From IMG/VR virus record IMGVR_UViG_2541047722_000016: DNA of 7,864 nucleotides, one strand, 5' to 3'. The notes under the pieces were generated by a model that was not told the origin of the DNA, searched no databases, and saw only the letters and a program-made list of their open reading frames with translations. Positions 1 to 6,805 of this stretch are shown here, in pieces. Position 1 is the first letter of the stretch, and every line of letters begins with the position of its first letter. The position numbers and the translations under genes were made by a program. This stretch comes from a virus. Taxonomy: Duplodnaviria; Heunggongvirae; Uroviricota; Caudoviricetes.

Positions 1-204
1 AGCGGTGGTGAGCCCTCCATCACCGCCCCCGGTATCCCGCTCATGCTGGCGAACCCAGACACGCAGAGTCTCCGGCGTACAGCCAATCTTTGGAGCAATG
101 GAACAAATTGTCGCCCATTGTGAGTCATATTCGCTCTGACTTTCCAGAACCATACGGACTGCCCGTTGACGGACTTCGGGGGAAAAACGAGTATTTTTAG
201 TCAT
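1..204 (-). CDS. IS3-family transposase OrfA, N-terminal part (partial, runs off window)
   Basis: ATG at 204-202 on the minus strand, preceded by GAAAGAGGTAAACAGG. My translation: [68 protein letters not shown], an HTH-type OrfA N-terminus. It is absent from the ORF track because it is under the length cutoff and truncated by the window edge. Confidence 0.75.
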
Positions 205-258
205 CCTGTTTACCTCTTTCTCAGGAAGTTTAGTCTCCAGGATTCCCGGGGCGGTTCA
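1..258 (-). mobile_element. Left end of an IS3-family insertion sequence (IS629/IS1203-like), continuing off the left edge of the window
   Basis: Minus-strand reading from 258 gives a terminal inverted repeat starting TGAACCGCCCCGGGAATCCTGGAGAC (IS3-family ends begin TG). About 50 nt inside it lies a GAGG Shine-Dalgarno and an ATG opening orfA. The IS629 assignment is from memory of the IS629 end and OrfA sequence, not a search. Confidence 0.75.
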
Positions 259-477
259 CAGATGCCATTCATGACCTTTGAAATTCGCTTTGTATGGCTT
301 TCTGGCGGCATTCAGGAGAAGGTTTTCCCACAGGGTGCGAAGATAAACATCTTTCGCCCATGACTGTTTCAGAATGCTCCGGTACAACGGAATGTAACCA
401 GTTTTCTGGTTCTCCATCCTGTTGCTCCTGCGCTCGTGTGCGGCGCTGAAATCGTAGATTTTTGCTGTATTGCTCAT
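256..477 (-). pseudogene. Lambda O-like replication initiator, N-terminal 73 codons only; truncated by the IS insertion
   Basis: ATG at 477. The N-terminus MSNTAKIYDF resembles lambda O (MTNTAKILNF, from memory). The reading frame runs straight into the IS terminus at 258, and its TGA stop (256-258) is the first three bases of the IS inverted repeat (TGAACC). Confidence 0.5.
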
Positions 478-2160: not shown

Positions 2161-2213
2161 ATTTAAGTTTTCTTCAAAAATGCTCTTGACCATTAATTAA
2201 AGAGATCTTAAAT
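2161..2213. promoter_or_regulatory. OL/PL: PL promoter with overlapping P22-type operators
   Basis: -35 TTGACC (2186-2191), 16-nt spacer, -10 TTAAAT (2208-2213), reading rightward. Operator ATTAAAGAGATCTTAAAT (2196-2213) overlaps the spacer and -10; a second, weaker operator ATTTAAGTTTTCTTCAAA is at 2161-2178. Confidence 0.6.
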
Positions 2214-2259
2214 TTAAGCCATCAGCAGGACGCTGGAAGCCAAACGGAACAGATTGGCA

Positions 2260-2301
2260 GGCTCTTTAACATTGATGGGATTGTCCCGCCGAAATGCGGG
2301 A
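2260..2301 (+). promoter_or_regulatory. nutL-like site: boxA plus boxB hairpin
   Basis: GGCTCTTTAACATT (2260-2273), then TCCCGC-CGAAAT-GCGGGA (2284-2301), identical to the nutR boxB, about 60-80 nt downstream of the PL -10. Confidence 0.6.
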
Positions 2302-2614
2302 ACCAAAGAGTAGTTGGCTTTGGGGTGACGTGAAGTGCAGCTGCACGACGGCAACCGGAAGATAAGCACCCGGCGCGTCACCGCCAAAGTCAATTCCATA
2401 GGCGTTATGCAGCCGCCACCATATTCAAGAAAGCTGCACAAGAGGTAGGAGGATTTATGTGAATGCATAACTTCAAAACCGAGGTTAATTAAATCTCTCG
2501 ATCCGAGCATCGACCTATTAGGTGGCGAGATGCTCTTTCTGCCCCTCAGTTCGAGGGGCCAGAAACCACTTTGCAATCACTATCAATTCCAAAGTTGTTT
2601 CATCGGAGGTCAAC

Positions 2615-2913
2615 ATGACAGTAGTCATTACATATCTGGCTGACGATAACGCCAGAAATCGCCGCAGAGCACGCAGACAGGCTCAACGTGAACAGGCGAT
2701 GCAAGACAGCGACTGGCGCGAAAAATTGCGCTAAAGCTCTCTGGTTGCGTCAGAGCGGATAAAGCAGCATCACTCGGAATCCTTCGCTGCAAGAAGGCAG
2801 ATGAAGTCGAGAGTAAACAGAATCGTATTTACTACCGCAAGCCACGCAGTGAAATGGGTGTGACTTGTGTTGGTCGCCAGAAAATGAAATTAGGCAGCAA
2901 ACCACTTATTTGA
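2615..2913 (+). pseudogene. N: N-like antitermination protein, split by a 1-nt frameshift
   Basis: ATG at 2615 with GGAGG 7 nt upstream. Frame A gives MTVVITYLADDNARNRRRARRQAQREQAMQDSDWREKLR and stops at 2732-2734; it carries an arginine-rich motif. The frame one nucleotide behind is open from 2692 and ends ...NRIYYRKPRSEMGVTCVGRQKMKLGSKPLI at the TGA 2911-2913, matching the lambda N C-terminus as I recall it. Both frames are open across the A5 run at 2721-2725. Confidence 0.6.
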
Positions 2914-2921
2914 GGTGATAT

Positions 2922-3392
2922 ATGACAAAATCATGGAGCGTACCTTTTCCTGAATCAGAAACTGAACATGATGGAATGCCTGTTTTCTGGAGATTCCAAG
3001 CGACAGTTGAAGAAGATGGAATCAAAATATTCGCACTTCAATATATAGCTTTTCATCAGACAGAGCATTATGCATGGTTGGTTCCTGCGCATTGGATTGT
3101 TAATTTTAAACCAGCACCAAATCAGTGGTTACAGGAATGGAAACAAAGGAGAAATAGATATGCAATTAAGAAAGTAGCAAAAAATGCAGAAAGATCTTTT
3201 GCATTCCCGACGAAGAAACTTGCCATTGAAAGTTTATTGCGCCGGAAGAAATACCATTTGATGAGAATCAAACAAGATTTGGCTGTTGTATCAACTCTTG
3301 TTGATGGGATGAAGAATATTGATACATCAACACCAGGTATTGAATATAACTTTGGACACAACCAAGAAACAGAAAACTGGGTGTTTTATTAG
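2922..3392 (+). CDS. Hypothetical protein, 156 aa, AT-rich gene in the N-to-cIII interval
   Basis: Track ORF with GAGGTGA 6 nt upstream of the ATG. It starts 8 nt after the N stop. Visibly more AT-rich than the flanks (about 40% GC in a hand-counted sample). Acidic N-terminal half, K/R-rich C-terminal half, no obvious transmembrane segment, no family recognised. Confidence 0.7.
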   Translation: MTKSWSVPFPESETEHDGMPVFWRFQATVEEDGIKIFALQYIAFHQTEHYAWLVPAHWIVNFKPAPNQWLQEWKQRRNRYAIKKVAKNAERSFAFPTKKLAIESLLRRKKYHLMRIKQDLAVVSTLVDGMKNIDTSTPGIEYNFGHNQETENWVFY

Positions 3393-3496: not shown

Positions 3497-3520
3497 GCCC
3501 TCCAGTGTGAGGGCTTTTTT
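3497..3520 (+). terminator. Intrinsic terminator downstream of the AT-rich gene
   Basis: GCCCTC-CAGTGT-GAGGGC hairpin (3497-3514) followed by TTTTTT (3515-3520). Confidence 0.7.
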
Positions 3521-3586
3521 ATATGCATACCAATAACGCTTCACTCGAGGCGTTTTCGTTATGCAATCAAACAGAAGGAGCATCCT

Positions 3587-4013: not shown

Positions 4014-4619
4014 ATGAGCAAAGAATTTTACGCAAGACTGGCAGCTATTCAGGAGAATCTGAACGCGCCAAAGAATCAGTACAACTCATTCGGCAAATAT
4101 AAATACAGAAGCTGCGAAGATATTCTTGAAGGCGTTAAGCCGTTACTGAACGGTCTGTTTTTATCAATCAGCGATGAAGTTGTGTTGATTGGTGATCGGT
4201 ATTACGTGAAAGCCACGGCAACTATTACCGATGGCGAAAACAGTCATACGGCAACCGCTCTTGCACGAGAGGAAGAAAGCAAGAAAGGAATGGATTCTGC
4301 ACAAGTTACGGGAGCTACAAGCTCTTATGCACGCAAGTATTGCCTCAATGGTTTGTTCGGCATTGATGATGCGAAAGATGCAGATACAGACGAGCATAAA
4401 CATCAGCAGAACGCAGCAGCAAAGCAATCAAAACCATCACTTACACCTGAACAGGTTCTAAAAGCATTCACTGACGCAGCAATGCAGAAAAACACCGTAG
4501 AAGAGCTTAAACAGGCGTTCGCCAAAGCGTGGAAGATGCTCGAAGGGACGCCGGAGCAGCACAAAGCGCAGGACGTTTACAACATCAGACGAGACGAATT
4601 AGAAGGGGCAACTGCTTAA
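4014..4619 (+). CDS. erf: Erf-family single-strand annealing recombinase (P22 Erf-type)
   Basis: Internal ATG at 4014 of the track ORF (which opens at a TTG). Product MSKEFYARLAAIQENLNAPKNQYNSFGKYKYRSCEDILEGVKPLL... matches P22 Erf as I recall it. Confidence 0.85.
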   Translation: MSKEFYARLAAIQENLNAPKNQYNSFGKYKYRSCEDILEGVKPLLNGLFLSISDEVVLIGDRYYVKATATITDGENSHTATALAREEESKKGMDSAQVTGATSSYARKYCLNGLFGIDDAKDADTDEHKHQQNAAAKQSKPSLTPEQVLKAFTDAAMQKNTVEELKQAFAKAWKMLEGTPEQHKAQDVYNIRRDELEGATA

Positions 4620-5002
4620 TGGCACATTCGATTACAGTAAGACTAAACAAACCCGCAAGAGAGTTTCAGGGCGGGGAAAATATCGGATTCAACATCCGTG
4701 CTGGCGTTCAGTATTACGATCGCCAGACAAAAAAGAAAGAATGGACAAACTACAGCGCCGTTGTATTTGCCAAGCCGGGAGCGCAAGCGGATTACTATCG
4801 TAGCGTTCTGGTTGAAGGAGGCATTGTAGAAATTACCGGAGAAAACATCAGGGTTGATGTTTATCAGGGGCAAAATGGTCAATCAATCACTCTTGAATTA
4901 CTGAATGCAAAGATTGGATTTGCAACTTCAGGAAACAGCCAACAGCAGCAAAGTAGCAATCATCAAAATAATCCTGAATACGACGATTCCATCCCATTCT
5001 GA
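4619..5002 (+). CDS. SSB-like OB-fold protein with an acidic C-terminal tail
   Basis: ATG at 4619 overlaps the erf stop (TAATG). Product MAHSITVRLNKPAREFQGGENIGF... ends ...NPEYDDSIPF, which resembles the bacterial SSB C-terminal DDDIPF tail. Confidence 0.65.
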   Translation: MAHSITVRLNKPAREFQGGENIGFNIRAGVQYYDRQTKKKEWTNYSAVVFAKPGAQADYYRSVLVEGGIVEITGENIRVDVYQGQNGQSITLELLNAKIGFATSGNSQQQQSSNHQNNPEYDDSIPF

Positions 5003-5322: not shown

Positions 5323-5416
5323 GGAATTTACCATGAGAGGACTTGCTTAAGAGAAAGAGTTTCGGTTCTGTTAATGACAACAAATATCTGAATGCGATGT
5401 GGCGGAGTGGGAAGAA

Positions 5417-5935
5417 ATGAAACAAATGTCACTAATTGAGATGGATGGTTTTCTGAAAGGTAAATGCATCCCAAGTGATTTAAAGGTTAACGAAACAAAC
5501 GCTGAATACCTTGTCCGTAAGTTCGGTGAACTTGAATCAAAACTGGAAACGGCGTTGCGGGAGTGTAGTTCTGCTGGAATCACGATTGATAACCTTGAGG
5601 CTAAATGCGCGAAGATGGCTGCTGAAAATACCTCACTTAAGCAATCTGAGAAGGAATTTAATGACTTTTGTCGTGAGGAGTTTAGCGAATGGGAAGATGA
5701 TGTTACTGAAACCCCAGCCACCGATGCTTTTCTGGCTGAAGTGCGGGCGCAGGGGGTGGATGCTGCTATAGAAGCTGCAAAAAATCTGGTGGCCCAAGAA
5801 TATGAGTATAAGGATTTCAAAGCGGCGCAGAGTGATTGCTGTATGCACCCTGGTTCAGACCTGGTAGGGAAGGTTGAAATGACTGAGTGGTTAGTTGACT
5901 TTGCTGCCCAGCTTCGCAAAGGAGGCAACCAGTGA
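5417..5935 (+). CDS. Hypothetical coiled-coil protein in the ea region (172 aa)
   Basis: ATG at 5417 inside track ORF 5399..5935 (which opens at a GTG), with GGAG about 11 nt upstream. The central part is E/K/A-rich and predicted coiled coil. Confidence 0.5.
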   Translation: MKQMSLIEMDGFLKGKCIPSDLKVNETNAEYLVRKFGELESKLETALRECSSAGITIDNLEAKCAKMAAENTSLKQSEKEFNDFCREEFSEWEDDVTETPATDAFLAEVRAQGVDAAIEAAKNLVAQEYEYKDFKAAQSDCCMHPGSDLVGKVEMTEWLVDFAAQLRKGGNQ

Positions 5936-6231
5936 CTGTATGTCTTATTGATAAACGTCGACGTGGGCAACAAATACCATCTGTTGAAATGCCGAATCAC
6001 ACATGGTTTTGCGTACTTGATATCGATGGTATGGATACGTTGGTTGACACTCGTCATTACTGCGATACCGCAACAGCTACTCCGGCGAAAGCAAAGAAAA
6101 TGGCTGCTCTGATAGAAAACTGGACTCCACCTGATGGTTGGTGCAATGGGAATGATCGAGATTGGCACGAAAAAATGAAGGGCTATATCTGCGATTTTTT
6201 ACGTAAATGCAACGGCTTCAGGGGGATGTGA
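5932..6231 (+). CDS. Hypothetical protein (99 aa), GTG start
   Basis: GTG at 5932 with GGAGG 6 nt upstream; it overlaps the preceding stop (GTGA). Several Cys residues; no family recognised. Confidence 0.5.
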   Translation: MTVCLIDKRRRGQQIPSVEMPNHTWFCVLDIDGMDTLVDTRHYCDTATATPAKAKKMAALIENWTPPDGWCNGNDRDWHEKMKGYICDFLRKCNGFRGM

Positions 6232-6232
6232 T

Positions 6233-6805
6233 ATGACCAAAATTAACTATCAGGCACTGCGTGAGGCGGCAGAACGTGCAATTCCGGCAATGGAACGCCT
6301 GTTAATGTTGCCAGTTGATGATGATTTGTTAAGTGAACAGGAACTTAAGGATTACGGTGTGGATATTGATGCGCTCAACGCCTTCAAATTTCTGACCGGA
6401 CCAGAAACCGTGCTGGCGCTGCTGGATGAACGGGAAAGAAACCAGCAATACATCAAACGCCGCGACCAGGAGAACGAGGAAATTGCGCTAACGGTAGGGA
6501 AGCTGCGCGTTGAGCTGGAAGCTGCAGAGAAGCGCATTGCAGAACTGGAAGCCGAACCTGTAAGCCAAACTTACAAGTTGAACGAGCTGTCGGGCAACTA
6601 TCCGGTAACTCCGGATGGTTGGATAAGCTGTAGTGAGCGAATGCCCGCTCAAGATGATTGGATTTTAATTTATTCAAAGCACGGCGAGTATATGGCAGGA
6701 CAGGTACAAGGGGAATACGTGGAGTTGAGCGACGGCACTTTATCGTGGTTAGGGAACGCCTTGTACTGGATGCCTCTACCGGAACCGCCGCAGGAGGTTA
6801 ATTGA
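6233..6805 (+). CDS. ead/Ea22-like protein with a DUF551-like C-terminal domain
   Basis: ATG 1 nt after the preceding stop. The N-terminus MTKINYQALREAAERA is typical of Ea22-like proteins as I recall them; a central coiled coil is followed by a C-terminal ...DGWISCSERMP...WMPLPEPP. Confidence 0.6.
   Translation: MTKINYQALREAAERAIPAMERLLMLPVDDDLLSEQELKDYGVDIDALNAFKFLTGPETVLALLDERERNQQYIKRRDQENEEIALTVGKLRVELEAAEKRIAELEAEPVSQTYKLNELSGNYPVTPDGWISCSERMPAQDDWILIYSKHGEYMAGQVQGEYVELSDGTLSWLGNALYWMPLPEPPQEVN

Follow-up and report, generated by a model that had tools for sequence, protein, structure and literature searches.

N-type antiterminators and N-defective prophages

The closest described counterparts of the gene considered here are the N proteins of lambda, of phage 21 and of the HK620/HK140/CUS-3 type (phrog_271), with which it has an arginine-rich motif (ARM) at the N-terminus and the first position in the pL operon in common, and from which it differs in that its reading frame breaks after codon 30. 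In lambda N, the regions that bind NusA and RNA polymerase lie beyond the ARM, and lambda genetics shows that, when N is lost, delayed-early transcription is blocked and the prophage stays locked in. The locus also resembles the N-defective (cryptic) lambdoid prophages and the classical lambda N- mutants in that N has been lost and decay continues by IS insertion and deletion. It differs from these in carrying a very recent single-base lesion, unaccompanied by any other substitution over 6.7 kb relative to intact siblings, and this lesion recurs in other prophage backgrounds. The DNA analyzed here, hereafter referred to as the window, is a stretch of 7,864 nucleotides from the IMG/VR record IMGVR_UViG_2541047722_000016.

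The pL operon and the identity of its first gene

Judged by homology, the gene encodes a transcription antiterminator of the N type and belongs to a lambdoid prophage of E. coli that is P22-like/CUS-3-like; this prophage adjoins torI/dsdC in related genomes, and close relatives of the region are numerous among phages. When the missing base is restored (see below), the predicted protein matches phrog_271 with E=2.9e-36 and shares 68% identity with phage 21 N (E=2e-46), to which it is nearly identical from residue 33 onward; its residues 63-99 align with residues 75-110 of lambda N in the antitermination complex PDB 6GOV (E=0.0012). The ARM is of the HK620/CUS-3 type and not of the lambda, P22 or 21 type. 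The repaired protein misses the gathering cut-off of the Pfam family PF25694 (N_peptide), scoring 19.4 bits against the required 27.9; this is a short and divergent family, and the PHROG and pairwise matches constitute strong evidence for the predicted assignment. The features of the window to which we refer are the following:

1-258, minus strand: end of an IS3-family insertion sequence, which interrupts an O-like replication-initiator gene
259-477, minus strand: N-terminal fragment of the O-like replication protein (PF04492, Phage_rep_O), cut by the insertion sequence
1443-2093: repressor gene, then a terminator at 2092-2111
2186-2214, plus strand: pL-like promoter (TTGACC, 17-nt spacer, TAAATT), downstream of the repressor gene and its terminator
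2261-2301, plus strand: nutL, with boxA GCTCTTTAA at 2261-2269 and a boxB-like hairpin (TCCCGC-CGAAAT-GCGGGA) at 2284-2301
2605-2609, plus strand: Shine-Dalgarno sequence GGAGG of N, present in all homologues aligned
2615-2734, plus strand: ORF1, the truncated N of 39 aa, with a match to phrog_271
2706-2707, plus strand: site of the 1-nt deletion in codon 31; intact genes read GAA-CAG or GAG-CAG (Glu31-Gln32), the window GACAG
2707-2913, plus strand: remainder of N in the -1 frame (QRLARKIALKL...GRQKMKLGSKPLI), comprising the central part and the C-terminus that binds RNA polymerase
2721-2725, plus strand: A5 run, composed of native codons; AAAAA or AAAGA in intact relatives
3497-3560, plus strand: two tandem terminator-like hairpins (tL1-like), found by pattern matching

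N is thus the first gene of the pL operon and is preceded by nutL, the boxA of which has the same sequence as the element labelled 'putative Nut boxA' in HK140 and mEpX2 and agrees with the boxA-L of phage 21. The tL1-like hairpins sit between the gene that follows N (2922-3392, phrog_1636) and the erf/anti-RecBCD recombination genes; this pair is likely to be the first target of N-mediated antitermination and is a plausible equivalent of tL1. A scan of the whole window with Rfam at gathering thresholds returned no matches.

Several further properties of the operon were noted. At 2531-2559, the leader of N contains another boxA-like motif (TGCTCTTTC) and, behind it, a GC-rich hairpin with a stem of 7 bp (GCCCCTC-AGTTC-GAGGGGC) that is located 55 nt before the N start codon; an RNase III site and a second nut-like element are both possibilities for this putative structure, and a related prophage locus (L010) carries a different hairpin at the matching position. 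Database entries of 65-aa 'hypothetical proteins' (for example HK630 gp43; P0002 and P0008) that correspond to the nutL region (~2225-2330) appear, when inspected by eye, to be translations of boxA/boxB, and their clustering with the unrelated 39-aa ORF1 looks like the product of spurious ORF calls and a clustering artefact. Between 2900 and 7864, no sigma-70 promoter-like site is found on either strand, compared with 8.6 +/- 2.7 expected from shuffled sequences; the pL operon appears to be depleted of internal promoter-like sequences.

A split N gene that lacks one base of codon 31

ORF1 extends on the plus strand from the ATG at 2615 to the TAA at 2732-2734 and encodes a polypeptide of 39 aa (MTVVITYLADDNARNRRRARRQAQREQAMQDSDWREKLR). 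Its first 30 residues are those of authentic N and include the ARM (NARNRRRARRQAQRE, residues 12-26); the last nine (DSDWREKLR) are read out of frame until the TAA stop codon is encountered. Against the phrog_271 profile (anti-termination protein N-like), residues 1-31 match positions 58-88 with E=1.4e-7. The -1 frame is open from 2692, directly after the TGA at 2689-2691, up to the TGA at 2911-2913, and it encodes the N-like remainder (QRLARKIALKLSGCVRADK...KPLI). Since the ORF listing of the window contains no plus-strand ORF of at least 25 aa that ends at 2913, this downstream part lacks a usable start codon of its own and is not translatable alone. No uninterrupted frame therefore connects the ARM with the NusA- and RNA-polymerase-binding regions; translation ends at the TAA at 2732. 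A first-pass annotation of the window had described this arrangement, and a renewed reading of the ORFs bears out its coordinates, its two-frame layout and the -1 direction of the shift.

The same annotation had located the frameshift in the A5 run at 2721-2725, and the addition of one A to this run indeed yields, upon translation, the 99-aa fusion protein that it had predicted. However, alignment with homologous genes places the single missing base elsewhere. In one alignment set, the window was compared with the intact N genes of vB_EcoP-611R6, HK140, CUS-3 and Gally; a second set also included those of E. coli ATCC 11775, phage 21, VT1-Sakai and mEpX2. Exactly one gap separates the window from the intact genes, which read ATGCAAGA[A/G]CAGCGACTGG where the window reads ATGCAAGACAGCGACTGG (pattern match over the loci); this gap falls at 2706/2707, 15 nt upstream of the A5 run. 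The run itself is native: it reads CGA-AAA-ATT (Arg-Lys-Ile) in the intact frame and forms an A_AA.A tetramer in the frame of ORF1, and it is present as AAAAA in 611R6, HK140 and ATCC 11775; in CUS-3, Gally and UTI89 it is AAAGA, a synonymous change of the Lys codon. Counting the A residues in intact homologues, the check that the annotation had itself recommended, hence speaks against a lesion in the A run.

Restoring one A at 2706/2707 gives a 99-aa N protein that is identical to WP_000219332.1, annotated in ATCC 11775. The ancestral junction is accordingly ...AMQEQRLARKIALKL... and not ...DSDWREKIALKL..., and a look-up in ~15 billion proteins for the fused product with the latter junction found it absent. 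Over 7.6 kb, the window aligns with the intact ATCC 11775 prophage at 100.0% identity, with a single gap and 0 mismatches over 6.7 kb. Because the one gap is all that separates the two sequences, the deletion is very recent. Taken together, we consider it very probable that a recent and genuine deletion of one A of codon 31 (GAA to GA-) at 2706/2707 has inactivated N.

Possible ribosomal frameshifting at the A5 run

A different fate of the gene is conceivable if ribosomes that translate ORF1 were to change frame. A -1 slip of tRNA-Lys on the A_AA.A tetramer (2722-2725) would produce a full-length N (...DSDWREKIALKL...), in which case the split gene would still function as an antiterminator, perhaps at a reduced level. 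The direction of the shift is right for such an event, and the tetramer is the only site within the 2692-2731 overlap of the two frames at which re-pairing is possible, namely at AAA 2723-2725 preceded by A2722. With dnaX, the orfAB genes of IS3-family elements and A_AAA_AAG sites equipped with stimulators, the window has in common the overlapping frames, the need for a -1 shift and an A run in the overlap. Unlike the programmed -1 sites of E. coli, it possesses no X_XXY_YYZ heptamer (read in the 0 frame, the sequence is C GAA AAA T). It has neither a hairpin or pseudoknot to act as a stimulator nor a Shine-Dalgarno-like element upstream (where the segment reads GACTGGCGCG), and its two-frame layout is not conserved. 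The 75 nt of RNA downstream of the tetramer (2726-2800) fold with -17.6 kcal/mol, less stably than shuffled sequences with their mean of -20.65 kcal/mol (z=+0.93). In E. coli, tetramers that lack a stimulator shift at background level (0.147% versus 0.112%), and among the tetramers that do respond, A_AA.A gives the weakest response even when it is combined with a strong pseudoknot (PMC4066793).

The comparative data bear on this possibility as well. The deletion allele persists in several prophage backgrounds, and every deletion allele found has AAAAA and none AAAGA, a weak argument for slippage given that it stems from exact-product look-ups and small numbers. On the other hand, intact genes differ from one another at a synonymous position of the A5 run (AAA/AAG); the extra base is present, and N is a single ORF in frame, in each of the 26 phage-collection records in which the 202-nt N module is covered, and the same is true for 38 of the 40 listed prophage copies. 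Moreover, an A5-to-A4 allele, which the very same slip would rescue to the exact wild-type protein, occurs on one contig only. The slip that the first-pass annotation had named as its less likely option is thus, beyond the direction of the shift, not supported as a programmed event, and a programmed or functionally sufficient slip is, in our view, highly improbable. Any slippage at the A5 run is an adventitious leak and not a mechanism; basal slippage at A_AA.A would provide trace amounts of a near-full-length N with six altered residues. The annotation of the locus is corrected by these findings: the missing base lies at 2706/2707 and not in the A run, and there is no recoding signal.

Distribution of the deletion allele

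When a 371-nt query was compared with 5,426 complete E. coli genomes, 231 of these covered at least 80% of it. Among the 40 of these matches that were listed, only FY26 and NCTC11151 match the query over 371 nt at 100% identity; in the remaining 38, the match spans 372 nt, and these are hence intact. FY26 and NCTC11151 possess one copy of the N module each, and PGAP/RefSeq marks N in both as a 'frameshifted' pseudogene, compared with an intact 300-nt CDS in ATCC 11775. Because the best 120 matches of a homologue search did not reach the short truncated products, the census of carriers was taken by exact look-ups. These located the exact 39-aa product in 60 index blocks, which correspond to 26 contigs of NCBI, ENA and Logan. 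Carriers of the deletion allele include FY26, NCTC11151, GCA_000456885.1, GCA_000460295.1, GCA_948144355.1 and others, and scaffold KE699353.1 of GCA_000456885.1 matches the window over its full length at 100% identity. When the deletion allele was searched for as an exact pattern, one match appeared in IMG/VR, one in the JGI metagenomes (of the same type as L010) and none in species-representative genomes. A literature search for reported N frameshifts or N pseudogenes retrieved nothing specific.

This distribution leaves hardly any room for the idea that the real N gene is intact and that one base was dropped during sequencing or assembly, a possibility that the first-pass annotation had raised as a homopolymer error. 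Single-base indels are the commonest assembly error, and one of the carriers, NCTC11151, stems from a long-read sequencing project. But the indel is at an A2/GAG site outside the A5 homopolymer and is not private to one assembly: the identical allele is present in two complete genomes that different laboratories produced, and also in several draft and metagenome assemblies of independent origin, some of which are drafts of the same prophage. Nor is a systematic error tied to the sequence context likely, since the same context is read with the extra base in at least 38 of the 231 assemblies (among the matches listed). With no homopolymer at the site, and with the allele in assemblies from several projects, a sequencing error is therefore very unlikely.

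The remaining option of the first-pass annotation, that N is a pseudogene, is supported by these data: the window has one base fewer than every intact relative, there is no downstream start codon, and RefSeq labels the gene as frameshifted. The lesion is best explained as an ordinary, recent 1-nt deletion that leaves a dead N gene in a decaying prophage, and RefSeq already flags the gene accordingly.

Recurrence of the deletion in other prophages

The identical 1-nt deletion (GACAGCGACTGG, GACAG junction) is found in at least five other prophage contexts, whose flanks are unrelated, and on at least six haplotypes of a 200-nt module. The loci concerned are L010, L011, L012, L013, L016, L018, L019 and L025, with the gene at 6001-6120 in L010-L019. 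In L010 and L025, N is preceded by another leader and followed by ral, and the repressor/cro/cII module is the same as in the window; L011 and L013 possess an HK140-type C-terminus, and the pairs L012/L018 and L016/L019 have another repressor. The N modules of L010/L025 and L016/L019 agree at 100% identity, although their flanks differ. In its pL operon, the metagenome-assembled locus L011 contains N twice: an intact gene of the lambda type at 4445-4777 (PF11438; phrog_271, E=1.5e-26) and, 1.2 kb downstream of it, the frameshifted HK620-type N at 6001-6120. L011 could hence be a viable carrier of the defective module. For the L010- and L012-type alleles, a search of complete genomes for intact siblings retrieved only intact copies at ~98-98.6% identity, which does not prove an independent origin of the deletion in those backgrounds.

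The frequency of this particular lesion was judged against 19 control frameshift products, which were looked up in the same manner. They comprised indels of the A5 run, a deletion in an AAA run, an insertion where the window has its deletion, this deletion placed on the AAAGA background, and ten single-base deletions nearby whose products are likewise 39 aa long. Of the 19, 16 were absent, and the other three were present on one, two and one contigs. The recurrence of the deletion is not predicted by a purely random one-off lesion and counts, in this respect, against the explanation that we favour. The private markers of the window allele, GCG at 9 nt upstream of the deletion and GCGGAT at 51 nt downstream of it, are common to its intact siblings. 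The window allele arose either independently or via a conversion tract of less than 59 nt.

The deletion site coincides with a mosaic joint of N genes. The N gene of mEpX2 diverges directly after ATGCA(A/G)GA, and those of phage 21 and VT1-Sakai are homologous from CACTGGCGCG onward, which places the joint at ~2700-2715. In-frame indels of database proteins cluster at the same position: P0037 is without Gln32, P0040 is without five residues, P0041 has a duplication of four amino acids, and P0051 is a doubly shifted and compensated allele. The data suggest two candidate explanations for the recurrence, either the spread of a defective module by recombination or trans-complementation, or a mutational hotspot. 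That the joint of the specificity (ARM) module and the conserved core at 2706/2707 is such a site-specific hotspot, or bears the mark of a circulating defective module, with repeated loss of N and an independent and very recent origin of the window copy, is a tentative and in our opinion rather doubtful reading. If the recurrent deletions are independent, they would point to an unrecognised mutational hotspot at a module boundary of N. The recurrence across prophage backgrounds is a minor curiosity, and the sole part of this analysis that might repay further work.

Specific causes of the deletion were also considered. The deletion affects positions 1-2 after an AAG motif, a location that would suit an escape from CRISPR interference; this idea was rejected, as no type I-E spacer was found. 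A query composed of 20-nt repeat flanks and the spacer had no place with at least 80% coverage in the 5,426 complete E. coli genomes, and in a repeat-spacer-repeat query, which included a second candidate with an ATG PAM, generic arrays ranked first and masked any signal. A templated deletion at a quasi-palindrome was rejected too; when the intact and the deleted allele are folded as single-stranded DNA, the site falls in the loop of a hairpin that is weak and imperfect (z about -1). A search for repeats retrieved nothing relevant, and an upstream AGACAG hexamer that matches the deleted allele is a 6-mer picked post hoc.

Predicted consequences for antitermination

We infer the loss of N function from the domain map of lambda N and from homology. 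Translation from the ATG at 2615 yields only the 30-residue boxB-binding arm with nine missense residues, and the NusA- and RNA-polymerase-binding parts of the protein (2707-2913) would, by analogy with lambda N, not be made. Transcription from pL (2186-2214) and pR would then not be rendered termination-resistant at nutL (2261-2301), and transcripts would end at terminators, for instance at the two tL1-like hairpins (3497-3560). The delayed-early genes would consequently stay off, and the prophage is predicted to be non-inducible and incapable of complete lytic growth.

The peptide that is still encoded might, in principle, have a function of its own. ORF1 keeps its ribosome-binding site, its start codon and the full ARM, and the same truncation is over-represented in comparison with the 19 control frameshift products; ARM-only peptides retained by selection could compete for boxB and thereby dampen antitermination in the prophage itself or in superinfecting phages whose nut specificity is the same. 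There is a precedent for the exclusion of other phages by an ARM protein in Nun of HK022 (PMC4124055). But pL is repressed in a lysogen, so that the peptide would not be made at the time at which exclusion is needed, and any of ~80 upstream or neighbouring deletions would yield similar ARM peptides and are not seen. We give scarcely any credence to a functional ORF1 peptide.

Decay of the prophage

In the genome from which the window derives, the loss of N was followed by a further lesion, the IS3-family insertion in the replication gene (1-258). At locus L017, a 100% match to the whole window, both halves of the replication gene flank the insertion sequence; this insertion is a second, independent lesion of the prophage. 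FY26, NCTC11151 and L015 carry the N deletion but not the insertion sequence, and L014 and L005 combine the N deletion with an IS-associated deletion that joins cro to the virion-injection genes. Given the existence of carriers that have the N deletion and lack the insertion sequence, the loss of N predates the further lesions in this lineage. FDAARGOS_1301, a sibling with an intact N, has suffered an IS3-mediated deletion of its own. This succession of events fits a prophage that is decaying under relaxed or host-favourable selection. It may represent an early step of prophage domestication in E. coli of the K1/ExPEC type, in which the loss of N is followed by the insertion of an IS element into the replication gene and then by larger IS-mediated deletions.

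Not all of the damage to the prophage is as young. A DUF2737 fragment (~5337-5420) and an ead/Ea22-like gene (~6233-6544) are annotated by PGAP as partial pseudogenes in all siblings, those with an intact N included, and these two lesions are therefore older than the N deletion. Among the sibling prophages, L009, L014 and L005 exhibit different IS3 junctions, with IS-associated deletions that reach the virion-injection genes. The IS3-family element at the left end of the window belongs to a family whose copy in FDAARGOS_1301 carries a real programmed frameshift, annotated as such by PGAP.
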